Origin: Gemmatimonadota bacterium
GTDB lineage: Bacteria > Gemmatimonadota > Gemmatimonadetes > Gemmatimonadales > GWC2-71-9
Length of the DNA: 64,000 nucleotides
Direction: 5' to 3'
NCBI GenBank assembly: GCA_036679605.1
Contig: JAZDCZ010000247.1
Span: forward strand, 1 to 64,000
Every line of letters starts with the position of its first letter. Positions within the stretch are counted from its first letter, which is position 1. Shown piece after piece: positions 23,752 to 44,005 of this stretch. A program made the translations under genes and the position numbers. The notes beneath the pieces were generated by a model, which made no database searches, was not told the origin of the DNA, and saw nothing but the letters and a program-made list of their open reading frames with translations.

Positions 23752-25020
23752 ATGTCCAGCACCACAGTTAGGCGCAGACGGATGAGGAGTCATGCCGTCA
23801 TGACCATTGCGGTCGTCCTACTCGTTTCACTCACGTTCTTGAGCGCGGGGAAGCAAGGTCGGCAGCTCGACCCCACTGTCATTCTTATCAGCCTGGACGG
23901 ATTTCGCTGGGACTTCCTGGGGCGAGCGGAAACTCCCAACCTCGACCGTCTCGTGGAGCGGGGCGTGCGCGCCGAACGTTTGGTTCCCGTGTTCCCTTCG
24001 CTCACTTTTCCCAATCACTACAGTATGGTCACCGGCCTGCACCCGGAAAATCATGGGATTGTGTCCAACACTATGTACGATCCCGTTTTGGACGCGCGTT
24101 TCCGCATCGGCGATCGGGATGCTGTAACTGACGGAAGGTGGTGGGGTGGAGAGCCGCTCTGGGTCACCGCGCAGAAACAAGGCCAGATCGCGGCGTCGTT
24201 TTTTTGGCCCGGGTCCGAAGCCGCTATCCAGGGCATCCGCCCCAACTTCTGGAAGCGTTTCGACTCGCGTATACCGCACCGCGCCCGCGTCGCGCAGGTC
24301 ATGGAGTGGCTCGATCTAGCAGAGCGAGAGCGACCGACATTCATAACCCTGTACTTCAGCGATGTAGACCACGAGGCGCACGATAACGACCCTGACACCG
24401 CGCCTGAAGTGGATGCGGCTATAGCGCGCGTCGATTCTGCGATTGGGTTCCTACTCGCGGGTTTGGATGAGCGCGGGATCACCGATCAGGTGAACATCAT
24501 AGTTGTCTCCGATCATGGCATGGCCGGGAGGTCGCCCGATCGAGTAATCTTGGTCGATGACTACATCAACATAGGGGATGCCAATGTCATTGACTGGACT
24601 CCCAACATCGCTCTCCGGCCTGACGAGAACCATGTAGACGAGATCTACCGAGCACTGAAGGGTGCCAGCCCTCACCTCAAGGTCTACCGCAGGGAGGAGA
24701 TCCCCGAGCGGTTCCATTACCGCGATAATCCACGCATTACCCCGATCCTGGGTATTGCGGATGAGGGATGGTCGATCAGCTCACATGGGTATTACGATTC
24801 CCGTCCCGACCGGTTTGAAGGCGGCACGCATGGTTGGGATAACCAAGCTCTTTCCATGGGCGGGCTGTTCGTTGCTTCGGGCCCTGCGTTTCGCAATGGC
24901 CTAGTCGTCTCGCCGTTTCAGAACATCCACATCTACGAGCTGATTTGCCATGTGTTGGGTTTGGAGCCAGCACCCAATGACGGGAGCATTGATTCTATTC
25001 GGGTAATGTTGCGTCGGTGA
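23752..25020 (+). CDS. Ectonucleotide pyrophosphatase/phosphodiesterase (NPP, alkaline phosphatase superfamily)
   Basis: 'LISLDGFRWD', 'FPSLTFPNHYSMVTG', 'VVSDHGM', 'GTHGWD'. True start may be 23782 or 23800. Confidence 0.92.
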   Translation: MSSTTVRRRRMRSHAVMTIAVVLLVSLTFLSAGKQGRQLDPTVILISLDGFRWDFLGRAETPNLDRLVERGVRAERLVPVFPSLTFPNHYSMVTGLHPENHGIVSNTMYDPVLDARFRIGDRDAVTDGRWWGGEPLWVTAQKQGQIAASFFWPGSEAAIQGIRPNFWKRFDSRIPHRARVAQVMEWLDLAERERPTFITLYFSDVDHEAHDNDPDTAPEVDAAIARVDSAIGFLLAGLDERGITDQVNIIVVSDHGMAGRSPDRVILVDDYINIGDANVIDWTPNIALRPDENHVDEIYRALKGASPHLKVYRREEIPERFHYRDNPRITPILGIADEGWSISSHGYYDSRPDRFEGGTHGWDNQALSMGGLFVASGPAFRNGLVVSPFQNIHIYELICHVLGLEPAPNDGSIDSIRVMLRR

Positions 25021-29021: not shown

Positions 29022-29744
29022 ATGATCCTGTTGGACCCGAACGCGCGGCCTGTGGTCGCGCACCGGGGAGCATCAGGAGAGTATCCTGAGAATACGCTCC
29101 TGGCTTTCGAGCGAGGCTTGGAGCAGGGTGCCGATGCGATAGAATTCGATGTTCGTGTAACTCGCGATGGCATACCGGTGGTGATCCATGACGGAACAGT
29201 CGATCGAACCGCGGACGGAAGCGGTGAAGTAGGTCGCCTCACGTGTCACGACGTTTGCAGTTTTGATCTGGGGGCAGGTCAGAAGATTCCCAGACTCGAG
29301 CATGTGTTCGAGAGTTTCCCGGGGGTCCCGATGATAATCGAGATGAAGGACGAAGCGGCCTCGGAGCCCGCACTTCGAACCATCGAACGGTGTGGTGCAG
29401 TGAAGCGTGCGTTGGTCGGTTCATTCGACCATGGCGCACTGAAACCATTTCGAGATGCTGCGATCGAGTGTTCCGCTTCCCGTCGAGATTCGACCATCTT
29501 TTGGCTGGCTTCTCGGCTCGGCTGGGCAATGAGAGGGCGAAGATACGCTGCTTTTACTGTACCCGCTCAGCGTGGCGCTTTGCGGGTGGTGGATGTTCGC
29601 TTTACCTCACTTGCGGCCAAGCATTCGAAGCCAGTACATGTATGGACAGTAGACGATCGTTCAGTGGCTATGAAACTGCGCGCCATGGGCGTTGCCGGTA
29701 TCATCACTAACTTTCCGGCTCGCATGCGCGATCTGAGTTCGTGA
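29022..29744 (+). CDS. Glycerophosphodiester phosphodiesterase
   Basis: 'AHRGASG..PENTL', 'EFDV..T.DG..VVIHD', 'WTVDD', 'GIITNFP'. Confidence 0.93.
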   Translation: MILLDPNARPVVAHRGASGEYPENTLLAFERGLEQGADAIEFDVRVTRDGIPVVIHDGTVDRTADGSGEVGRLTCHDVCSFDLGAGQKIPRLEHVFESFPGVPMIIEMKDEAASEPALRTIERCGAVKRALVGSFDHGALKPFRDAAIECSASRRDSTIFWLASRLGWAMRGRRYAAFTVPAQRGALRVVDVRFTSLAAKHSKPVHVWTVDDRSVAMKLRAMGVAGIITNFPARMRDLSS

Positions 29745-29862: not shown

Positions 29863-30717
29863 GTGCAGCTGACGGATCTCTTTCTCCTGGGGGCGGTGGG
29901 AGCCGCAATAGTTGCGTTGCTCTTGGCGTCGCGATCACCATCCGCTCTGCGTCGGCCCGACCCGACCAAGGAAGTATTCGAGGTCGATGATGGGCCGATG
30001 CCACAACTGGACGGCAGTCACATGCGACCCGGGAGAGAGTTGCTGTCAGCTTGGGTGCAGTTTCTGCGGAGTGCAATTGCCGAAGCCGCGAACGCACTGC
30101 ACAACAGACTCAATGTCATCGCCGCCGTAGCGGACATGGACTCATCCAATCTCACTAAGGAGCAGCAAAGGGCCCTGAGTCAGATCAAGATCGAAGTGGC
30201 CAGGGCTGCGAAAATATCGAACGGTCTTATGCGACGTGTGACCACGATGGCGCCAAACACCTCGCCTGTGGCTCTTTATGAATACGATGGCGAGGGGATG
30301 GAGCCGGCGCGCATCCTGATCGTAGAGGATGACGATGCCAACCGATCGGTCATGGTTAGATTGTTCCAGAGCCTGGGCCATGAGGTTACCGCGGTGACCG
30401 ACGGCCGGGATGCCTTCGAAGAACTCAAGCTGCGTCCGATTGATTGCGTGATCAGTGACATACGGTTGCCATACGTGGGCGGACGAACTCTGTTTGAGCA
30501 GGTCGAGGAGCGGTTACCGCACCTTGCGAGTAAATTCGTCTTCGTGACTGGAGACTACACGCGTCCGGAGTCGCGGGAATTCTTGGAGCGGACGGGACAG
30601 CCCTTCATTGGGAAACCGTACGAGTTGAATGAGTTATTGGGGGCGGTTGCCATGACTCTCAAACGCCGCCTGAGTATCTCGGCGACTGACCGGCCCGTAT
30701 CGGGACAGGCAACATAG
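29863..30717 (+). CDS. Membrane-anchored receiver-domain protein with degenerate HisKA-like segment
   Basis: N-terminal TM helix; 'AEAANALHNRLNVI' H-box-like helix; REC motifs 'IVEDD', 'ISDIRLP', 'VTG', 'KP'. Confidence 0.8.
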   Translation: MQLTDLFLLGAVGAAIVALLLASRSPSALRRPDPTKEVFEVDDGPMPQLDGSHMRPGRELLSAWVQFLRSAIAEAANALHNRLNVIAAVADMDSSNLTKEQQRALSQIKIEVARAAKISNGLMRRVTTMAPNTSPVALYEYDGEGMEPARILIVEDDDANRSVMVRLFQSLGHEVTAVTDGRDAFEELKLRPIDCVISDIRLPYVGGRTLFEQVEERLPHLASKFVFVTGDYTRPESREFLERTGQPFIGKPYELNELLGAVAMTLKRRLSISATDRPVSGQAT

Positions 30718-30767: not shown

Positions 30768-31802
30768 ATGGCTTCTAGGTTTGAAAGGATTCCCTTCCGT
30801 CCGTTGCTCCGCTTGGCGATCTACTATGCGGTGCTGATCACGGGCGCGCTGCTTGTAAAGTCGCGCTGGCCGGATCTTTACAATTTGGTTTCCCGTTCTC
30901 GACTGCAGGGCTCGGGCGTGGCGGCCAATATCATGGCTGCCCCTGGTGGAGCAGGATCGGTCACTGCCCATCCGGGCATGACCGCGATAGCTATTGTGAG
31001 CGCACTCGTCGTCATGTTGCCGGTGGCATGGGTCTACATGATAACCAAGCACCGGAAGGGCTACGATCAATCGGTTGTCCACACACTCATTGTGTTGCCA
31101 GTCGCCATATGTGGTGTGGTGGTGATCGTACAAAACAGTGTGGCGCTCGCGTTTAGTCTGGCCGGAATTGTGGCCGCAGTACGATTTCGTAACACGCTCA
31201 AAGACACGAAGGACGCCGTCTATATCTTTGTTGCAATCGCTATCGGGTTGTCTGTGGGCGTACAGAATCTAGAGGTTGCCGGGGTAATCTCGATCCTGTT
31301 CAATCTGATCGTCTTGGGCCTGTGGTGGACGAATTTCGGCAATGTGTATGCGGATCAGCTCAGTCGAACCGGTCCGGTTACGGCGGGGCAAGCCGTGGCG
31401 GGGTCCAGCCCAGATAACGTCCATATGCTCGGTGACCCCGAATTGCTGGAGGCCATGGATTCTACAGAGCTGGGGGAGTTGGCGGATCGAGCCCAACGGT
31501 TTCGCGAACATGTCGCGTCCAGGAGCGATGACGATGCTAAGAAACGACCGAATGCGGTGGTGATAGTGCATGTGTCGGACGCCGAACAATCGCAGAGCAG
31601 CATCGAAGATGTGTTGGAACGGTTGACCAAGGACTGGAAACTGGTAGAGATCATGCAGGGAAAGGAGGAGCGGTGGGTTTTGGAGTATCTGATTCGCGCT
31701 AAGCAATCTCTCGCTCCCTCAGCGCTGCTGCAACAGATCAAGGATGGTGGTGCTCCTTTCGTGCTCGCTACTGAGTTTAGATCTCTCAAGGGGCTGCGTT
31801 AA
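30768..31802 (+). CDS. DUF4956-family membrane protein
   Basis: 'NSVALAFSLAGIVAAVRFRNTLKDTKDAVYIF.AIAIGL' signature; multiple TM helices and a soluble C-terminal domain. Confidence 0.85.
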   Translation: MASRFERIPFRPLLRLAIYYAVLITGALLVKSRWPDLYNLVSRSRLQGSGVAANIMAAPGGAGSVTAHPGMTAIAIVSALVVMLPVAWVYMITKHRKGYDQSVVHTLIVLPVAICGVVVIVQNSVALAFSLAGIVAAVRFRNTLKDTKDAVYIFVAIAIGLSVGVQNLEVAGVISILFNLIVLGLWWTNFGNVYADQLSRTGPVTAGQAVAGSSPDNVHMLGDPELLEAMDSTELGELADRAQRFREHVASRSDDDAKKRPNAVVIVHVSDAEQSQSSIEDVLERLTKDWKLVEIMQGKEERWVLEYLIRAKQSLAPSALLQQIKDGGAPFVLATEFRSLKGLR

Positions 31803-34800
31803 TTGTCGCTGTTGAACGATTCCCTGGTGAGGCTGATCGTAGCCGATGCTGACCTTCTGAATCGGCTCAAGACAGACCCGTTGCCAGTCAAGCTCCGTTC
31901 GGGCGAAGCACAGCGTAGTTTCTTCCGTGACTTGTACTTCGACACGCATGACCGCGTCCTTGAAAGCAAGAGGGTGACCTGTCGGTTGCGTATGCCGCCT
32001 CAGGGAGAGAGAATCCTGACGGTTCGAATACGAACCGGCGTCGAGGACGATTCGTCGAATACCGGCGGAAACGTTTTCAGCGCGGTCGTGCCGGTTGTTG
32101 ACGAGGAAGAGCTGTTCGAGCATCCGACCGAACCCACACAGGTGCTGCGTGCGATCATTGATCCGCAGCGACTGAGTCCACGCGTGGAACTGGAAATGGA
32201 TCGCACGGTGCGAGCCGGCAGAGGTCGGTTTCGCATGAAGCCGCAATTCGAGTTTCGATATGACACCGTGACTGTCCGGGCCGGTGAGCTAGAGGGGGTG
32301 TTTCAGGATCTCACCATTAGGCGTGTGGCGCCGGGCGGTCCCGATCTCAAGGCTTTGACCGCAGCGTTTGATGACGTATACGGCATCCAGCCCGGACTCG
32401 GCGGCAGGTTGGATCGGGCCCGTTCTGTGCTCGACAGGCTTGAAGTGGAGTCGCTCGAGCATGCAGTGCAGGCGGCACGGGAAGTTGCCGTCATCCCGTT
32501 CGACTTCGGTAGGGTGGGGATGCATCTGGACAACGGCGTTCTCAAGGTACTGACTGGGTCTGGGGGTGGAGAGGAAGCCGCCCGGGCAGTGCTCAAGACC
32601 TGGTTCTTGAGTTCGCAAGCACAACTTAGGCTCTTGGGGACGTCACCGGGGACAGGCAATCGTCCGGCGATGGAGGTGTGGATAGCCCGCCGAATACCGA
32701 CGGGTCGAGACGGCCAGCCGGAACTCGAGTGGTTGTTCTTGGACGACATGATCTCTCTGGTGGGATCGCCTTCTGTGAGAGACAGCAGAACGTTGGCCGC
32801 ATTGCATGTTGCGGCGCGCTCAGAACTCGTGCGGGAACGACCCGTCTGGGCGCAACGTGGCAAGATCCCCGAGGGGATCTCGATGGATCTATCAGACGAG
32901 ATGCCAACGCAGGGACGCACGTCAGGCGCGCTGAGGGATCCGCAACTTGCAGCGAGTGCCCTGGATGTGTCGAGGCCCGACCCCGAGCAGTTCATCAACC
33001 GGGATTTGAGTCAACTCGCCTTCAACCTGCGGGTGCTCGAACTTGCTGAGGACAGACGTGTGCCCACGCTTGAACGGTTGAAGTATCTGTCGATCTTCAA
33101 CGCGACGATGGACGAGGTGTTCATGGTCAGGGTCGGAGTGCTGAAGCGCGCGACAGCCGGCGGTGGGTCGCGGAGGAGTATCGATGGATTGACGGCGGGT
33201 GAGCGGTTGGAGGCGGTGGCCATTCGTTCGAGACGGTTGATTGAGCGTGCCTATGGTTGTCTTTCCGACCAACTCTTACCCGAGCTTGCCGAGCATGGCA
33301 TCAAGATTCTCCGTTATTCGGACATGACCGATGAGCAGATCAAGTTTCTGAGAGGCCATTTCGAGGAGCAAGTCTTTCCGGTGTTGACTCCTCTGGCTGC
33401 TAGTCCCAGCCACCCGTTTCCGCACATCCCCAACTTCACAATTGCAATTGCATCGATGGTGCGAGATCCTGGAACCGGTACGGAACACTTTGCGGCTGTG
33501 CCGGTGCCGCCGTCAATTCCCAGATTCATTCGCCTACCAGAGACACATCACTTTGTGCCGATAGAGGCTGTGATGTGTGCGAACATCGAGATGATGTTCC
33601 ATGGCCTGGAGGTGATATCTTCGCATTGGTTGCGGGTGACTCGAAGCGGTGAAGTGCGGGTGGACGAATGGAGTTCACAGGATCTCATGCAAGCCATCGA
33701 GGAGGAAATTGAGAAGCGCCCATTCGGTCCTGTGGTACGTCTCGAGGTAGATGCGGCGATGCCGAAGGCGATGGTAGAGCTCTTAGTACAGGAGTTTTGC
33801 TACGAGGAGCCGTGTGATGTGAGCATGTTCGGGGAGTCGGATGTGTATCAGTATGATTGGCTTCCCGATCTAGGTGGCCTAGGAGAGATCGCCAAAGTAG
33901 ACAAGCCGGAGCTGCACTTTGGGAAGTTCGCTCCTGCCGAGCCCGACGATCCTGATCGCCTTCTGGTCGATCTGATTAGTGAAGGCGATATCATAAAGAA
34001 CTTCCCGTTCGATTCATTCGAAATGTCCGCAGAGCGATTCTTCGTGGAAGCTGCCGAAGATCCGGACGTGCTCGCCATCAAAGTGACACTCTATCGAACA
34101 AATCAGAACTCACAGATAGTCAGAGCCCTCGAACGCGCAGTTGCTACGGGTAAACAGGTCGTTGCACTGGTAGAATTGAAGGCCCGATTTGAAGAGGAGC
34201 GCAACATCGAATGGGCGAAATCGCTGGAGCGCGCTGGAATCCACGTGGTCTACGGCCTCCTGGGTCTCAAGACCCACGGCAAGATAGGGTTGGTCGTTCG
34301 GCGAGAGGGAGATGCCATGCGGCGATACGTTTATGTCGGCACGGGTAATCTTAACTCTGAAACGGCCAAGCACTACACAGACTTCGGGTTCTTCACTGCC
34401 GATCCCGAGATTGGTGCTGACATTAACGATCTCTTCAACGCAGTATCGGGTTACGCTCCCAGAGAAAAATATCGGCGGCTACTGGTTGCACCCCACACAA
34501 TGCTTCCACGATTTCTGGAACTCATCGAACGTGAGAGCGAGCACTCTAAAGCCGGGCGCGGTGGGAGAATCAGGGCCAAGATGAACGGATTGGGAGATCC
34601 GGAACTGATCGCCGCCCTCTATAGAGCATCGCAGGCCGGGGTGCATATCGATCTCATCGTGCGGGGAATATGCTCGCTCAGACCCGGAGTGCGTGGCCTT
34701 TCAGACCGTATTCGCGTGATCTGTGTGCTTGGCCGCTTTCTGGAGCATCCCCGCATATTTCATTTCGGCAACGACGATGACGATGAGTACTACATCGGAT

Positions 34801-35018
34801 CGGCCGACTGGCGCACTCGAAACCTCAGACGTCGCGTAGAGGTTGTAGTACCAATCACGGATAAACGCTGTCAGAGCGTACTGGACAAGGTTCTCGATAT
34901 GCAGTTGTACGATCCACTGGCGTGGGAGCTGACCGCTGATGGTTCGTACGTAAGGCGCAATATGCAGGGCGTCGGCTCGCAAGAGCAATTGATCGCCCGT
35001 GCCCTTGGAGACACGTAA
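31803..35018 (+). CDS. ppk1: Polyphosphate kinase 1 with ~390-aa N-terminal extension (CYTH-like + Nudix-like)
   Basis: PPK1 motifs 'FINRDLS.LAFN.RVL', 'ELKARFEEERN', 'GLKTHGK', 'RFLEH.RI', 'GSADW..RNL.RRVE'; N-terminal 'DLYFDT.D..L.....CRLR'. Confidence 0.92.
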   Translation: MSLLNDSLVRLIVADADLLNRLKTDPLPVKLRSGEAQRSFFRDLYFDTHDRVLESKRVTCRLRMPPQGERILTVRIRTGVEDDSSNTGGNVFSAVVPVVDEEELFEHPTEPTQVLRAIIDPQRLSPRVELEMDRTVRAGRGRFRMKPQFEFRYDTVTVRAGELEGVFQDLTIRRVAPGGPDLKALTAAFDDVYGIQPGLGGRLDRARSVLDRLEVESLEHAVQAAREVAVIPFDFGRVGMHLDNGVLKVLTGSGGGEEAARAVLKTWFLSSQAQLRLLGTSPGTGNRPAMEVWIARRIPTGRDGQPELEWLFLDDMISLVGSPSVRDSRTLAALHVAARSELVRERPVWAQRGKIPEGISMDLSDEMPTQGRTSGALRDPQLAASALDVSRPDPEQFINRDLSQLAFNLRVLELAEDRRVPTLERLKYLSIFNATMDEVFMVRVGVLKRATAGGGSRRSIDGLTAGERLEAVAIRSRRLIERAYGCLSDQLLPELAEHGIKILRYSDMTDEQIKFLRGHFEEQVFPVLTPLAASPSHPFPHIPNFTIAIASMVRDPGTGTEHFAAVPVPPSIPRFIRLPETHHFVPIEAVMCANIEMMFHGLEVISSHWLRVTRSGEVRVDEWSSQDLMQAIEEEIEKRPFGPVVRLEVDAAMPKAMVELLVQEFCYEEPCDVSMFGESDVYQYDWLPDLGGLGEIAKVDKPELHFGKFAPAEPDDPDRLLVDLISEGDIIKNFPFDSFEMSAERFFVEAAEDPDVLAIKVTLYRTNQNSQIVRALERAVATGKQVVALVELKARFEEERNIEWAKSLERAGIHVVYGLLGLKTHGKIGLVVRREGDAMRRYVYVGTGNLNSETAKHYTDFGFFTADPEIGADINDLFNAVSGYAPREKYRRLLVAPHTMLPRFLELIERESEHSKAGRGGRIRAKMNGLGDPELIAALYRASQAGVHIDLIVRGICSLRPGVRGLSDRIRVICVLGRFLEHPRIFHFGNDDDDEYYIGSADWRTRNLRRRVEVVVPITDKRCQSVLDKVLDMQLYDPLAWELTADGSYVRRNMQGVGSQEQLIARALGDT

Positions 35019-37216
35019 TGAGACAGCATTGCTTGCTGGTCATGATCGCCCAACTCTTGGCAGTGCCGGCTCTAGCGCAGGTATCTCAGCTCAGAGAGCT
35101 ACCTAGGCTCAGCAACGAGACCATTTGGAACTCGCCGGAGTTCACCAATGATATGGTGTCTGCCGACTGGGACCGGAACCCGCAGTACTTCACCATTACG
35201 CGAAGTGGCAGCAGTGGGGCATCGGATATTTATCGGATCGACGCGCGCTCGGGTACGGAGGAGTTGCTGGTCAGTGGCAGTGACCTAGTGCCACGCGGAC
35301 AACACAATCCGATCAAGGTTGAGTCGTACCGATTTTCCGACGACGGGACGAAAGTGCTCATCTTCACGAACTCAGTTCGCGTCTGGAGACAGAATACCAA
35401 GGGTGAGTACTTCATCTGGGACAGGAATAGACGGCAGCTCAATCCGATCAGTGACCGTCCCGGGTTACAGCAGTTCGCCAAGCTATCACCCAACGCGAAG
35501 TCGGTAGCGTTCGTACGAGATAACAACATCTTTGTCGCGGAATTGCGATCCGGGAGGGAAAAGCAACTCACGTTCGACGGCGATGAGAACGTAATCAACG
35601 GTACGTCCGATTGGGTTTATGAAGAGGAACTGGGAGTGCGAGACGCGTTTAGCTTCAGTCCCGATGGCAAACGGATTGTGTTTTGGCGGTTTGATCAGTC
35701 AGCGATCAAACCGTTCTTTTTGATCGACCAAACGTCACCGCATCCTAGTCTACTTTCCGTCCGATATCCACTTGCAGGTGAACAAAACTCGGAAGTGAAG
35801 ATCGGTGTGGCTGAAATCGCCTCAGGCAAAACCACCTGGGTTGATCTCGGTACTGAAGAAGATATCTACGTCGCCGCGTTGGGTTTTGCGGAACAGTCCG
35901 ACGACATTTGGCTCACTCGTCTCAATCGGCATCAGAATAAGCAGGACCTGATGATGGCCGATGCCCAGACAGGCGTGTCTAGAGTCATCATGACCGACAC
36001 TGATGATGCCTGGATCGACGCTCGAGCGCCGAGGTGGATCGACGACGGTGAACGATTTCTGATCGAGAGCGAGCGCGACGGCTACAATCAGGTGTTTCTG
36101 TACAGCCGTGACGGCAGTTTAGTACGCAAGGTGACTACGGCGGAGTGGGATGTTATGCGTGTATTGGGGGTCGATGAGGAGCACAGGGTCCTCTATTTCA
36201 CCGGAGCAGGCGAGGGGCCCTTGGTCAGGCCGCTCTACAGTGTGCAACTCGATGGCACAGGTCTCAAGAGGATATCGTCTGCGAACGGTACTCACAGCAT
36301 CGAGTTCAATAGCGACTACTCAATGTATGTGGATACCTACTCTAGTGCCGGCGTGCCTCCCGTGAAGACGTTACACGATTCGGACGGCAGCGTTGTCCGC
36401 ACCATTGCCGACAACGAACGGGTGATTGAGAATGTGCGGGCGTTGAGTCTAACGCCACCCGAGTTCATCAAGGTTCCTGCGGCCGACGGGACCAGACTGA
36501 ACGCCTACATCATACGGCCGCCGGACTTCGATCCGGGAAGAAAGTATCCGGTTCTCATGTACGTTTATGGTGGTCCGGGATCGCAGACAGTGCAGGACTC
36601 TTGGGGTGGTGGGCGCTATCTCTGGCACCAACTCTTGGCTTCGGATGGCTACGTCGTGATGAGCGTGGATAACCGCGGCACGGGTGCTCGCGGACGCGAC
36701 TTCAAGAAGCAGACCTACTTGAACCTCGGGAAGCTTGAGGCGGCCGACCAGATTGCCGTCGCCGAGTACTTGGGTTCGCTGGCGTTCGTCGACGCCAACC
36801 GCATAGGCGTATGGGGATGGAGCTACGGTGGCTACATGTCGCTCTTGGCTATGTTGCGGGGCAACGGTGTGTTCAAGGCGGCGTTGTCGGTGGCACCTGT
36901 CACCGATTGGCGCTTCTATGACACAATCTATACCGAGCGATACATGCGAACGCCTCAGGAAAACGAACAGGGGTACAACTCCGGCGCTCCGCTAGGTTAT
37001 GCCGATAGGTTGCAGGGGAATTTGTTGCTGGTACACGGTACCGGCGACGACAACGTGCATCCACAAAATACCATACGGATGATCCAGGCGCTGGAAGATG
37101 CAAACAGACAGTTCGACATGCGTCTGTATCCCAACAAGACCCACTCGATCAGTGGTGGTCGCACTAGAGTGAACCTGTATGACCTGTTCACTGAGTGGCT
37201 GAAAGAAAACTTGTAG
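35018..37216 (+). CDS. Dipeptidyl peptidase IV (S9B)
   Basis: 'NGTSDWVYEEE', 'GWSYGG', 'HGTGDDNVH'; signal peptide. Confidence 0.95.
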   Translation: MRQHCLLVMIAQLLAVPALAQVSQLRELPRLSNETIWNSPEFTNDMVSADWDRNPQYFTITRSGSSGASDIYRIDARSGTEELLVSGSDLVPRGQHNPIKVESYRFSDDGTKVLIFTNSVRVWRQNTKGEYFIWDRNRRQLNPISDRPGLQQFAKLSPNAKSVAFVRDNNIFVAELRSGREKQLTFDGDENVINGTSDWVYEEELGVRDAFSFSPDGKRIVFWRFDQSAIKPFFLIDQTSPHPSLLSVRYPLAGEQNSEVKIGVAEIASGKTTWVDLGTEEDIYVAALGFAEQSDDIWLTRLNRHQNKQDLMMADAQTGVSRVIMTDTDDAWIDARAPRWIDDGERFLIESERDGYNQVFLYSRDGSLVRKVTTAEWDVMRVLGVDEEHRVLYFTGAGEGPLVRPLYSVQLDGTGLKRISSANGTHSIEFNSDYSMYVDTYSSAGVPPVKTLHDSDGSVVRTIADNERVIENVRALSLTPPEFIKVPAADGTRLNAYIIRPPDFDPGRKYPVLMYVYGGPGSQTVQDSWGGGRYLWHQLLASDGYVVMSVDNRGTGARGRDFKKQTYLNLGKLEAADQIAVAEYLGSLAFVDANRIGVWGWSYGGYMSLLAMLRGNGVFKAALSVAPVTDWRFYDTIYTERYMRTPQENEQGYNSGAPLGYADRLQGNLLLVHGTGDDNVHPQNTIRMIQALEDANRQFDMRLYPNKTHSISGGRTRVNLYDLFTEWLKENL

Positions 37217-40531: not shown

Positions 40532-41194
40532 CTAGCCCCTGCAGTCGGTTCTGGTTGCGAAGGTGGCGATCTCAGAGGGCTGGGTCAACCAGCGGTCCGG
40601 CGGCGGACTGTCGAGGTCGCTACGCTCGAAGGGTCCCCAAAGGGCAGCTGCGGTGATCACTCCGGCGGCCCGTCCGGCGGCCATGTCGTGTGGTGAGTCT
40701 CCCACAAATACAGTCCGGCTGGCGTTGGCTTCGAGGAGTTCGAGCGCCCTAAGGACGGGAGCCGGATCCGGCTTGTGTTTTGTGACATCGTCGGCAGCCA
40801 CGAGAGTATTGAACAGGCCTGAGAGTTCGCAGACCTCGAGTCCGCGGTGCGCACCGGCCCGGGCTTTGCTAGTGACGATGCCCAGGCGATCCGTCGTGCT
40901 CCGGAGTGATTCGAGCGCATGCTTGATGCCGGGATAGGGGCGGACCGATTCGTCATGGTGAGCCAGCGTGTAGTTTCTGTACGTTGTTATCATCGAGTCG
41001 AGTTCGGCGGAGTCTCGGGCAAAGGCCTTGAGCTGAGTTCGCAACGGCGTTCCGACTCCGGCGAGCCACGCACGGTCGGGTGGAACCGATTGACCGTGTT
41101 CTCGAATAGTGTGTCGAAACGAACTGAGGATTAGTTCTATTGAATCGATCAGTGTGCCGTCGAGATCGAAAAGGAATGTGTCGATTATTGACAT
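40532..41194 (-). CDS. HAD-family phosphatase (PpaX-like)
   Basis: 'FDLDGTLIDS', 'VTSK', 'KPDP.P', 'VGDS..D'. Confidence 0.9.
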   Translation of the reverse strand: MSIIDTFLFDLDGTLIDSIELILSSFRHTIREHGQSVPPDRAWLAGVGTPLRTQLKAFARDSAELDSMITTYRNYTLAHHDESVRPYPGIKHALESLRSTTDRLGIVTSKARAGAHRGLEVCELSGLFNTLVAADDVTKHKPDPAPVLRALELLEANASRTVFVGDSPHDMAAGRAAGVITAAALWGPFERSDLDSPPPDRWLTQPSEIATFATRTDCRG

Positions 41195-41290
41195 TTGCAG
41201 AAGATCTCCGGTCTCTTCTATTTTCGCTAGCTCGAGAGGATTCGCGATGGTGCCGCGTGGGTCCTCTTTGCCTGTCCTAGAGATGTGTTG

Positions 41291-44005
41291 ATGAACATTA
41301 AAGTACTGAAAGCCAGTGTTGTCCTTTCGCTTGTCGCCGCTGGTTCGGCGGGGGCTCAGGGATCCCCTGTCCAGGAATCCCTGAGCAGTCAAGGTAATCG
41401 TGACGCTAACCCGGGTAGTGACGTTCCTACGGAGATTAGGGCGGTGCGGGCGCAGGGTGCGGCGCCTGTAATCGACGGAAAACTCGATGATGAGGCATGG
41501 ACGCGGGCTCCTGCGATAACACGGTTTTTGCAGCGGAACCCCATTGAAGGTGCAGAGCCGAGTGAATCGACCGCAGTCAAGTTCGTATACACCGACCGGT
41601 CGTTGTACGTGGCATTCCGTGGTTACGACAGCGATCCGGGCAAGGTTTACGGCCGTCTCACCCGAAGAGACCAGCGGACCTCGGCCGATGGTTTCTCGCT
41701 ATTCATCGACTCGTTCTTCGATCGTCGTACCGCCTTCGAGTTCTCCTTCAATCCCTCGGGTTCGCGGCGCGACGTTTTCATATACGACGACGGGCGAGGT
41801 CGAGACGATACTTGGGATCCGGTATACGATTGGGCTACCAAGATCGACTCGCTGGGATGGACGGTTGAGCTACGGATTCCGTTCTCGCAACTGCGGTTTC
41901 CGGCCGGTGATTCGGTGGTGTTCGGTATCCGGCTCAGGCGTCAGATCAATCGGCGCAATGAGGACGAATCATGGCCGTTCTTCCCCAGGGATCAGGCCGG
42001 AGAGGTGTCGAATTATGCGACGCTGGTGGGCCTGGAAGGTCTGCCACGACCGCGCCGCGTTGAACTCTTACCTTACACGGCGGGGAGTGCGCAGTTCGAT
42101 CCCGCCGAGGCAGGGAATCCGTTTGAAACGGGGCAACAATCCACCGTGAGGGCCGGTGCAGATCTTAAGGTCGGCCTCACGAGCGCGATAACGCTCGAAT
42201 TGACAGCCAACCCCGACTTCGGACAAGTTGAGGCAGATGCCGCCGAGGTCAATCTGTCGGCCTTCGAGACTTTTTTCCCGGAGAAACGTCCGTTCTTCGT
42301 CGAGGGCACGAACCTCTTCAGATTTGGTCTTACGCCGGCCGCGAGGGGTCGCTTTGGGTTCTCCCGTGGGGGTAGTGAGGGGCTGGTGTTTACCCGGCGG
42401 ATCGGTAGGCCCCCGCAGATCTCGCCCGACGCCGCCGGCGGTTTTGTGGATCAAATGAGACAGACGACCATCCTTTCGGCCGGCAAGTTGACCGGCCAAC
42501 TCTCAGGGGGGTGGGCGTTCGGGCTGCTGCAGGCTGTGACGGCCAAGGAGAGGGCATCGCTGGTCGATTCAGTTGGCCTTCGCGGTTCCTCTGCTGTAGA
42601 ACCATTAACGAGCTACTCGGCGTTGAGGATCCAGCGTAACGCGGCGCGTGGGCGTGTGGCTTATGGCGCGATGGCGACGTCTACGGTGCGGCGCCTCGAC
42701 GATGCGAGCTTCAATGAGATGCACGAGCGGGCGTTCTCGGGTGGCACCGATTTGAACCTGCGCTTCGCCAGCGATCGGTACGAGATCGGGGCGGCCGTAA
42801 TGGGTTCCCGAGTCGAAGGTTCGCCCGACGCCATACTCCGTACGCAGCGCGCTTCCGCGCGCTACTACCAGAGACCGGACAAAGACTATGCAACATTGGA
42901 CTCCTCACGCACCGCACTGGAGGGATTCGCCGGTAATGCGAGGGTGGCCAAGGTCGTCGGGTTCTTCACGTGGGAGGCCAGATACGCTACGCGGAGTCCC
43001 GGTTTTGAAGTCAACGACCTAGGGTTTCTGCGTCAGGCGGATCTTCACGAACAGCGAACGCAAGCCAATCTGCGATGGCTCAAGCCAGGCAAGGTCTTTC
43101 GGCGGTTCGAATGGAGAGTCCAGGAAGATGCACGGTTTACGTACGGGGGCGAGCGCACGCAGACCCAATTCCAGACGAGGATCGACGCGGATTTTCTCAA
43201 CTACTGGAATATGAATATCAATGTCCAGCGCAGCCTCTCGAGCCTTTCGACTCGACTGTTGAGAGGCGGCCCGGCCTTGACTCAGCCGGGACGCTGGCAA
43301 GGGAGCTGGCGGGGACGTACGGACTTCAGGCGGCGCATATCGGGCGACTTAGGAGTAACGTACTCGCGAGAGGATGAATCCCAAGCTACTACGTTGAGGC
43401 TAGACACCGGCTTCCGACTCAGACCGCCGGGCGGTTTTTCACTGACGCTTGATGCCGATGCGACGTTCAACACGTCCGACCGGCAATTTCTCACCAGCGA
43501 GACAGCGCTCGATTCGACCTTCTATGTATTCGGACGTCTCGATCGCAAGGAATTCTCTATCACTTTGCGAGGAGATCTGGCACTGACACCTCGACTGTCG
43601 CTCGAACTGTATGCGCAGCCGTTCGTATCGACCGGCGAATACGAATCGATCAAGCTAGTCGACGATCCGCGCGCTAGCGCCTACGGTGACCGCTTCGACG
43701 TGCTCGGGCCTGACCGGCTAGACCGGCCTGGTGGGGGTGTCGATGTGGCCGTGGACGTGGATCGTGATGGCACAGCAAACTTCACGTTTGGAGACCCCGA
43801 CTTCCGTGTTGTATCGCTTCGTACCAACCTGGTGTTGCGGTGGGAGTTTGGCCCCGGTTCGACGCTCTTCCTAGTTTGGCAACAGGACCGGCGCGACCGC
43901 ATTGACGATGCCTCCTTCAGGATCGGAAGCGGTTTGGCCGATGCGTTCTCGGCCGAGGGGACCCAGGTGTTGGCGATGAAGATCGCGTATTGGTTGGGCA
44001 GCTAG
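41291..44005 (+). CDS. CBM9-like / DUF5916 outer-membrane protein
   Basis: Signal peptide; 'IDGKLDDEAW', 'W.VE.RIPFSQLRF', 'NPDFGQVEAD...NL..FE.FFPEKRPFF.EG'; terminal 'KIAYWL'. Confidence 0.85.
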   Translation: MNIKVLKASVVLSLVAAGSAGAQGSPVQESLSSQGNRDANPGSDVPTEIRAVRAQGAAPVIDGKLDDEAWTRAPAITRFLQRNPIEGAEPSESTAVKFVYTDRSLYVAFRGYDSDPGKVYGRLTRRDQRTSADGFSLFIDSFFDRRTAFEFSFNPSGSRRDVFIYDDGRGRDDTWDPVYDWATKIDSLGWTVELRIPFSQLRFPAGDSVVFGIRLRRQINRRNEDESWPFFPRDQAGEVSNYATLVGLEGLPRPRRVELLPYTAGSAQFDPAEAGNPFETGQQSTVRAGADLKVGLTSAITLELTANPDFGQVEADAAEVNLSAFETFFPEKRPFFVEGTNLFRFGLTPAARGRFGFSRGGSEGLVFTRRIGRPPQISPDAAGGFVDQMRQTTILSAGKLTGQLSGGWAFGLLQAVTAKERASLVDSVGLRGSSAVEPLTSYSALRIQRNAARGRVAYGAMATSTVRRLDDASFNEMHERAFSGGTDLNLRFASDRYEIGAAVMGSRVEGSPDAILRTQRASARYYQRPDKDYATLDSSRTALEGFAGNARVAKVVGFFTWEARYATRSPGFEVNDLGFLRQADLHEQRTQANLRWLKPGKVFRRFEWRVQEDARFTYGGERTQTQFQTRIDADFLNYWNMNINVQRSLSSLSTRLLRGGPALTQPGRWQGSWRGRTDFRRRISGDLGVTYSREDESQATTLRLDTGFRLRPPGGFSLTLDADATFNTSDRQFLTSETALDSTFYVFGRLDRKEFSITLRGDLALTPRLSLELYAQPFVSTGEYESIKLVDDPRASAYGDRFDVLGPDRLDRPGGGVDVAVDVDRDGTANFTFGDPDFRVVSLRTNLVLRWEFGPGSTLFLVWQQDRRDRIDDASFRIGSGLADAFSAEGTQVLAMKIAYWLGS

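Follow-up and report, generated by a model that had tools for sequence, protein, structure and literature searches.

A PPK1 lineage linked and fused to DUF4956 membrane proteins in Gemmatimonadota, a candidate for membrane-anchored polyphosphate synthesis

Introduction

In bacteria, PPK1 is regarded as soluble or peripheral, and the coupling of polyphosphate (polyP) synthesis to membranes as a trait of lower eukaryotes (10.1101/567040). The eukaryotic VTC complex (Vtc1/Vtc3/Vtc4) couples polyP synthesis to translocation. Among bacteria, Gram-positive pel loci have CotH, a polyP polymerase and DUF4956 as accessory genes (10.1101/768473). In the corresponding S. intermedius trio (SIR_1592-1594), SIR_1592 is described as an MgtC membrane domain plus an ACT domain, encoded beside a polyP polymerase and CotH, and deletion of either SIR_1592 or the CotH gene reduced Pel-dependent aggregation (PMC12345266). 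We take SIR_1592 to be the DUF4956 member of this trio. Here we analyse a 64,000-nucleotide (nt) stretch of Gemmatimonadota DNA (the window: positions 1 to 64,000 of contig JAZDCZ010000247.1, assembly GCA_036679605.1), in which a gene for a DUF4956 membrane protein is followed directly by a gene for a PPK1 carrying CYTH-like and Nudix-like domains at its N terminus.

Enzymes with the CYTH/TTM tunnel fold have two metal sites, site 1 consisting of a single Glu and site 2 of an acidic patch that is catalytic for hydrolysis; Vtc4 is described as lacking the acidic patch and keeping only the site-1 Glu (PMC4641920). Vtc4 is inactivated by mutating R264, R266 and E426, and the VTC pore is lined by Lys and Arg of TM1 (PMC9911596). 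In E. coli PPK1, His435 is the autophosphorylation site (PMC4400040).

The window locus resembles the CotH/VTC/DUF4956 trio in that a predicted MgtC-like/ACT membrane protein is encoded beside a polyP-synthesis gene, with an exported kinase-like gene nearby in most relatives of the locus. On the other hand, it has a PPK1 with a degenerate tunnel and a pseudo-Nudix domain instead of a VTC gene, its DUF4956 belongs to a distinct long clade with frequent fusion, no pel genes were found in the annotated stretch 20730-44005 of the window, and the kinase-like partner does not reach the CotH Pfam cut-off or is attached to an Omp85 barrel, and has no copy next to the gene pair in the window. With eukaryotic VTC it shares polyP synthesis beside a membrane domain and a TTM tunnel without the hydrolase acidic patch; it differs in that the likely polymerase is PPK1, the DUF4956/MgtC-like helices have no basic residues, there is no SPX domain, and any translocation would be hypothetical.

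Results

A DUF4956 gene abuts an extended PPK1 gene

The first gene of the pair (30768..31802; all features described here lie on the plus strand) encodes a 344-amino-acid (aa) protein of a long Gemmatimonadota clade of DUF4956, matching PF16316 with an E value of 2.6e-13 and 50.5 bits against a cut-off of 30.6. Its TAA stop (31800-31802) is followed with no gap, and in the same frame, by the TTG start (31803) of a 1071-aa CYTH-like/pseudo-Nudix/PPK1 fusion (31803..35018). A ribosome-binding-like AAGGGG (31788-31793) lies 9 nt 5' of this TTG, so that the whole junction spans 31788..31805; the TTG at 31812 is also a possible start. The four PPK1 Pfam domains (N, middle, C1 and C2) were found at aa 397-1055 (32991..34967), above their curated cut-offs, and TIGR03705 scored 722 against a cut-off of 466. 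As the PPK1 domains begin at aa 397, the protein carries an N-terminal extension of about 390 aa. A first-pass annotation, made by reading the sequence, had described both the abutting genes and the length of the extension, and its coordinates proved exact.

We considered two artefacts. A misassembled or falsely split gene is unlikely, because the same split architecture recurs in a relative of the same genus (G001) and in others. The junction was crossed without gaps by contigs from two other studies at about 91-92% identity; one sequencing run has the stretch in a single contig with 0 letters different, and this run may be the window's own source. Read-through of the stop into a single 1416-aa chain was rejected: the two genes share a frame in the window, but the inspected relatives differ from one another in this respect.

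The gene pair is conserved across Gemmatimonadota

Extended PPK1s were found in 13 of 61 relatives and in 23 of 121 genomes of the phylum (five families), making 29 distinct genomes. In 23 of these, DUF4956 lies within 6 kb of the extended PPK1 on the same contig, and in 22 it is upstream and on the same strand; these genomes are kin rather than independent, and we give the count without a p-value. The adjacency on which the first-pass annotation relied is hence conserved. The locus is fragmented in three of the six unlinked genomes (G004, G015 and G066). No DUF4956 was found in the roughly 4-kb flanks of 20 loci around other PPK1 matches, two of which are truncated extended forms, and canonical PPK1s do lie near DUF4956 in G036, G043 and G014. 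VTC genes are present in 4 of the 61 relatives, in every case next to a short DUF4956 from a separate clade; the extended PPK1 therefore stands where VTC stands beside the sister DUF4956 clade, which is the replacement that the first-pass annotation had proposed to survey. Near one of these VTC pairs (L055) there is a true CotH (PF08757, E 1e-8), so that a relative holds the canonical trio.

Two arrangements are recorded here as separate observations. In genus g24 (L087:4408-6867, L088 and L090) a eukaryote-like Ser/Thr kinase-TPR gene lies between DUF4956 and the extended PPK1. In L062 (G021:C3) a 1247-aa frame surrounding a canonical PPK1 matches neither DUF4956 nor CYTH and is probably a high-GC run-on.

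Relatives fuse PPK1 to the DUF4956 membrane domain

Among the best 8000 candidates scored, we recovered 63 long DUF4956 relatives, 58 of which are in-frame PPK1 fusions. In 51 of the 63 the DUF4956 membrane domain is joined directly to PPK1, without CYTH or Nudix, as one chain of about 930 aa. Seven are triple fusions (DUF4956-CYTH-Nudix-PPK1), and the five without PPK1 read like frameshifted run-ons. The ACT domain of DUF4956 is unmatched in all 58 fusions. DUF4956-PPK1 fusions are also present in genomes G009, G014 and G031. The unfused members examined all keep CYTH, some of them without Nudix (for example L039). No free-standing CYTH-Nudix protein was recognised among 145 new representatives, which are mostly contig fragments. 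As a side observation, at L046 (G014:C7:71000-88000) a DUF4956-PPK1 fusion faces a canonical PPK1 accompanied by PPX, SixA and CHAD, bringing the two types into one cluster.

Trees of the PPK1 core (FastTree on 150 rows, IQ-TREE in quick mode on 49 chosen rows) group extended, direct-fused and triple-fused PPK1s in one clade apart from canonical PPK1, with an SH-like approximate likelihood ratio (SH-aLRT) of 100. The direct fusions form a nested clade (SH-aLRT 99) among CYTH-bearing forms. A clade of all CYTH-bearing forms was rejected by the approximately unbiased (AU) test (p 0.0003), as was a single clade of all fusions (p 0.0005), the latter result possibly hinging on one unfused row among the triple fusions; these p-values are optimistic, the groups having been named after viewing the 150-row tree. 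Since the direct fusions are nested among CYTH-bearing forms, they must have lost CYTH and Nudix. Our reading is that CYTH-Nudix-PPK1 was ancestral and that covalent anchoring may have let one lineage drop ACT together with CYTH and Nudix.

These fusions bear on two claims of the first-pass annotation. The membrane coupling that it had proposed, in the form of a PPK1-driven analogue of VTC, is supported by the 58 of 63 relatives in which PPK1 and the DUF4956 membrane domain form one chain. It had also proposed that the extension tethers PPK1 to DUF4956, and the joint loss of ACT and CYTH/Nudix in direct fusions fits docking through those parts. Tethering as the sole role is however doubtful, because CYTH and Nudix persist in the seven triple fusions and in three operons where no DUF4956 was found; the two domains would therefore have a role of their own as well.

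The same persistence (3 of 23 genomes without DUF4956 found, and the triple fusions) is what would be expected if unfused proteins formed no lasting complex, the genes merely sharing a phosphate operon and CYTH and Nudix acting within a soluble PPK1 either as regulators that bind a ligand or as processivity domains. Between the window's genome (G000) and G001 the Nudix domain is no less conserved than the core (89% against 83% identity), PPX, CHAD and SixA also cluster at some of the loci, and on the DUF4956 tree the PPK1-linked members are not clustered beyond shuffles (95 of 500 as low), all of which agrees with a soluble enzyme. Yet fusion to the membrane domain is common and does not fall in a single clade by the AU test above, the direct fusions drop ACT and CYTH/Nudix together, and gene order and strand are common to 22 of the 23 linked cases, so that we consider a soluble PPK1 improbable.

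The tunnel domain has a Vtc4-like residue pattern

By sequence profile, the first 219 aa of the PPK1 fusion gave a sub-threshold CYTH match (E 1.4e-4), and a 15-row family profile matched E. coli YgiF (E 5.9e-4). A single-sequence search of the extension against PDB sequences returned nothing, profile and fold searches being needed. We modelled aa 1-386 with AlphaFold2 from a 57-row alignment (predicted local distance difference test, pLDDT, 85.7). The model consists of two domains and a disordered linker at about aa 347-390, and its top Foldseek match is YgiF (E 4e-9). In VIA-align comparisons of this predicted model, aa 7-212 (31821..32438) matched the TTM tunnel 2gfg with Z 15.4 (root-mean-square deviation, rmsd, 3.5; 174 aligned), YgiF 5a61 with Z 14.0 and Vtc4 3g3q with Z 12.1. 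The region is predicted to be an eight-stranded CYTH/TTM tunnel, the fold that the first-pass annotation had recognised by eye. The VTC profile PF09359 gave no match to it, and hhalign against four bacterial VTCs gave a probability of 1.3%.

In the window tunnel the ExExK position reads DxLxR and ExE reads DxT, in agreement with the loss of glutamates noted in the first reading. Mapping through the YgiF alignment shows that the site-2 acidic patch is gone (D6, L8, S93 and T171); Glu occupies these four positions in 16, 13, 39 and 17 of 57 rows, respectively. The protein keeps R10, R61, R63, R75, R134, R202 and R205, together with the site-1 acid, D169. By this mapping it shares the predicted tunnel fold, and appears to share basic residues and the site-1 acid position, with YgiF/AtTTM3 tripolyphosphatases (CYTH, PF01928), from which it differs by the lost site-2 patch and by fusion to PPK1 rather than to CHAD. 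We counted residues in 104 sequences thinned to 60% identity from the 171 covering the domain. R61, R63, R134 and R205 are kept in 85, 95, 99 and 88 of them, and the basic residues at 75 and 202 vary; the site-1 acid is Glu in 69, Asp in 4 (as in the window protein) and missing in 31. Independently of these positions, R42 (31926-31928) and R137 (32211-32213) are near-invariant (103 and 96 of 104); strand alternation would place them on the outside of the tunnel, where they could mark a binding surface.

Two-metal hydrolysis by the tunnel appears unlikely, because the site-2 patch is lost. The first-pass annotation had gone further and considered the domain non-catalytic. A missing ExExK is no proof, and inactivity is not established because Vtc4 too lacks the patch, and both the RxR pair and the site-1 acid are retained in the family. 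If R61, R63 and E/D169 are the counterparts of Vtc4 R264, R266 and E426, as the alignment suggests, the pattern would be Vtc4-like rather than simply dead. With these residues kept in 85, 95 and 73 of the 104 sequences, and Vtc4 itself described as having only the site-1 Glu (PMC4641920), the tunnel might even be an active Vtc4-type enzyme that polymerises, makes primers or trims alongside the PPK1 core. We regard this as very unlikely in view of the site-1 acid missing in 31 sequences and reduced to Asp in the window, the variable residues at 75 and 202, the lack of resemblance to VTC profiles and the loss of the domain in 51 fusions.

A pseudo-Nudix domain and a conserved PPK1 core

The second domain of the model, aa 222-346 (32466..32840), matched the Nudix fold 1vhg (Z 13.5, rmsd 3.3, 121 aligned). 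The Nudix catalytic motif is Gx5Ex7REUxEExGU; in 86 aligned rows GxGE is kept, the catalytic glutamates are replaced and the helix reads AcRxVLRxxFG. We conclude that this region is a predicted Nudix fold without catalytic glutamates, as the first reading had it. Non-catalytic Nudix entries (NrtR, AraR and the MutY C-terminus), whose Nudix domains have a ligand-sensing role, are among the structural matches (Z 10.6-11.9); like them it has the fold without the glutamates, but it sits on an enzyme rather than on a DNA-binding domain. Compared with G001 it has a nonsynonymous divergence (dN) of 0.08.

The core shares with canonical PPK1 (E. coli 1XDO; TIGR03705) its four domains, H825, equivalent to the autophosphorylated H435, and H982, the second HKD-type His; both are present in 67 of 67 extended rows. 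It differs by the 390-aa extension, its separate clade and its linkage to DUF4956 rather than to PPX, CHAD and SixA. Two positions depart from the canonical residues, T435 standing where canonical PPK1s have Asn and Y844 where they have His; the others checked are kept. Y844 lies at the position of His454 in E. coli PPK1, a residue of disputed importance. Tyr replaces His at this position in 41 of 67 extended forms, and His is present in 23 of 23 canonical PPK1s and 52 of 52 direct fusions; 2o8r has Leu.

The DUF4956 helices are uncharged

The AlphaFold2 model of DUF4956 (pLDDT 79.8) shows six hydrophobic helices (aa 16-187) and a C-terminal ACT/ferredoxin fold at aa 260-342 (31545..31793). 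The latter matches several ACT/ferredoxin folds with Z 9.4-9.7 in VIA, the MgtC C-terminal domain 2lqj (Z 9.5, rmsd 2.9, 88 aligned) being tied with other ACT folds. PF02308 (MgtC) gave a sub-threshold match in the short DUF4956 clade alone (E 4.6e-4). The predicted architecture is MgtC-like, membrane helices followed by ACT. The fold search returned no VTC or other membrane-channel match, although ACT folds filled its lists and the membrane part was barely tested.

Two loops of the protein are basic and conserved: aa 93-101, and R139-F-R141..D146-x-K148-D149. R139 is kept in 33 of 33 long-clade sequences, and R/K141 and K/R148 are invariant. From the positive-inside pattern, the basic loops, the ACT domain and the fused PPK1 would lie on the same side of the membrane. 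The helices themselves carry on average 0-0.4 Lys/Arg each in the 33 sequences, and the absence of conserved charge, against the Lys/Arg-lined pore of VTC, does not support a VTC-type pore; the translocation channel implied by the first-pass analogy with VTC is thereby weakened. When DUF4956 (aa 1-344) and aa 4-347 of the fusion were predicted as a complex, the score was 0.02 and the mark 0.32, which we count neither for nor against binding.

Exported kinase-like genes recur near DUF4956

With profiles built in this analysis, we counted neighbours at 50 long-clade DUF4956 loci. The commonest, a link absent from the first-pass annotation, is an exported kinase-like gene found near 38 of them (none at 8; contig edge at 4). 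It encodes either a signal-peptide protein of about 350 aa, with the motif NTDW..HN..PYDFD in the relatives, or an Omp85 barrel with a GDWDRH-motif domain. Metallophosphoesterase and SdiA-regulated propeller genes also recur.

The CotH label of the signal-peptide protein is weak. It derives from motifs and from an Atlas feature similarity of 0.96-0.97 to a cluster with 17% CotH. A PDB sequence search for it gave no match; PF08757 is absent from G000 and reached only E 0.09, in 1 of 25 cases; and the CotH-like profile scored below shuffled scores against true CotH, though the two aligned at the D..HN motif. One row of alignment A7 is a wrong-strand ORF (open reading frame). The N-terminal kinase-like domain of the Omp85 form gave E 0.63 against CtkA, and no profile match to the CotH-like family.

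Kinase-like proteins outside the cytoplasm would need a non-cytoplasmic donor, and their presence at 38 of 50 loci invites the proposal of a true VTC analogue, in which the polyP made by PPK1 is threaded by the tunnel into a DUF4956 oligomer and leaves the cytoplasm. We find such threading unlikely, and equally so the further proposal that exported polyP is the phosphoryl donor of the CotH-like or Omp85-anchored protein. Covalent membrane-PPK1 fusions, the invariant R139, R/K141 and K/R148 on the probable PPK1 side of the membrane and the Vtc4-like tunnel residues all speak for export. Against it stand the nearly uncharged helices, unlike the basic pore described for VTC (PMC9911596), the persistence of DUF4956 and the kinase-like gene in genomes where no PPK1 was found, and the 51 direct fusions that have no tunnel at all.

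The surrounding locus and its genome

A receiver-domain gene (29863..30717) ends 50 nt upstream of DUF4956; it also adjoins the polyP cluster in G001 and G036. The PPK1 stop overlaps the ATG of a dipeptidyl-peptidase IV (DPP IV) family gene (35018..37216; TAATG, 35016-35020), which is also 3' of PPK1 in G001 and is not a recurring member of the module. No promoter or terminator signals above shuffles were found at the locus, a plasmid search gave no match, and no RNA data set was listed as containing it. Genes for a nucleotide pyrophosphatase/phosphodiesterase, a glycerophosphodiesterase and a HAD hydrolase lie nearby (23752-25020, 29022-29744 and 40532-41392), phosphate-ester hydrolases that were not seen as recurring neighbours of the module. 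At L021 (G036:C1:3950000-3966000) the slot between the receiver gene and the DPP IV and aminotransferase genes holds different polyP genes (a long-branch canonical-type PPK1, SixA, DUF4956, an SdiA-like propeller and CHAD), which suggests that the polyP genes at this slot were exchanged.

The G000 assembly (6.7 Mb, 96.5% complete, 6.3% contamination) holds one extended PPK1 and one DUF4956, both those of the window, as the only members found of their families. It also holds one PPK2 and, elsewhere, a second, ordinary CYTH gene. Neither PPX (Ppx-GppA family), despite PPK1 and PPK2, nor a VTC gene (PF09359) was found in it. Three CotH-like genes (L098, L099 and L100, on contigs C142, C276 and C365) and two Omp85 kinase-like genes (L101 on C161; C88) are present, none of them beside DUF4956.

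Discussion

We propose, with about even confidence, that DUF4956 and the extended PPK1 form a unit in which polyP synthesis is anchored to the membrane, corresponding to the CotH/VTC/DUF4956 module but built on PPK1. The two proteins likely work as one, DUF4956 keeping PPK1 on the cytoplasmic side of the inner membrane, where polyP would be made from ATP by the PPK1 core and its synthesis tied to phosphate chemistry in the cell envelope. In the unfused form, contact may run from the ACT domain or basic loops of DUF4956 to the CYTH-like domain, because the direct fusions lose both together. The tunnel would grip a polyP or triphosphate end with at most one metal and without hydrolysis, serving as chain guide and dock. 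The pseudo-Nudix domain might bind a nucleotide or pyrophosphate ligand and tune activity, and DUF4956 would serve as scaffold or regulator and not as a pore for polyP.

Several observations weigh against this proposal. In the triple fusions a tether is superfluous. The search for DUF4956 found none in three genomes that are 95-99% complete (G063, G094 and G131), and in these a CotH-like gene lies directly 5' of the extended PPK1. Conversely, PPK1 is missing from the surroundings of many long-clade DUF4956 loci. DUF4956 can also do without PPK1, because in family f3 it is present in 6 of 12 genomes and PPK1 was found in 0 of 12. The activity of the window's PPK1 is not certain, as T435 and Y844 depart from the canonical Asn and His. 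Neither the window locus nor G001 has a kinase-like neighbour, the CotH label of that neighbour is, as said, weak, and we infer rather than observe every step of the mechanism.

Outside subscription journals, domain-architecture databases, the pel-paper supplements and the PMC12995831 neighbourhood tables, which lay beyond our search, we found no paper on CYTH-Nudix-PPK1 or DUF4956-PPK1 fusions. New here are the fusion-type counts, the tests on the trees, the finding that fusions lose ACT, the operons without DUF4956, the uncharged helices and the Vtc4-like residue pattern. An entire clade of PPK1s is associated with an integral membrane protein. Often the two form a single chain of about 930 aa, which would lend itself to purification and reconstitution, and this offers a way to learn what DUF4956 and the uncharacterised CotH/VTC/DUF4956 trio do. 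That Gemmatimonadota have evolved a VTC equivalent of their own, with membrane polyP, a Vtc4-like tunnel as guide and a periplasmic phosphoryl donor for exported kinases, is unlikely; if true, export would explain how kinases outside the cytoplasm work without ATP. In 7 of 13 genomes checked no PPK1 other than the extended type was found, so that most polyP synthesis in those soil and sediment bacteria likely depends on it.

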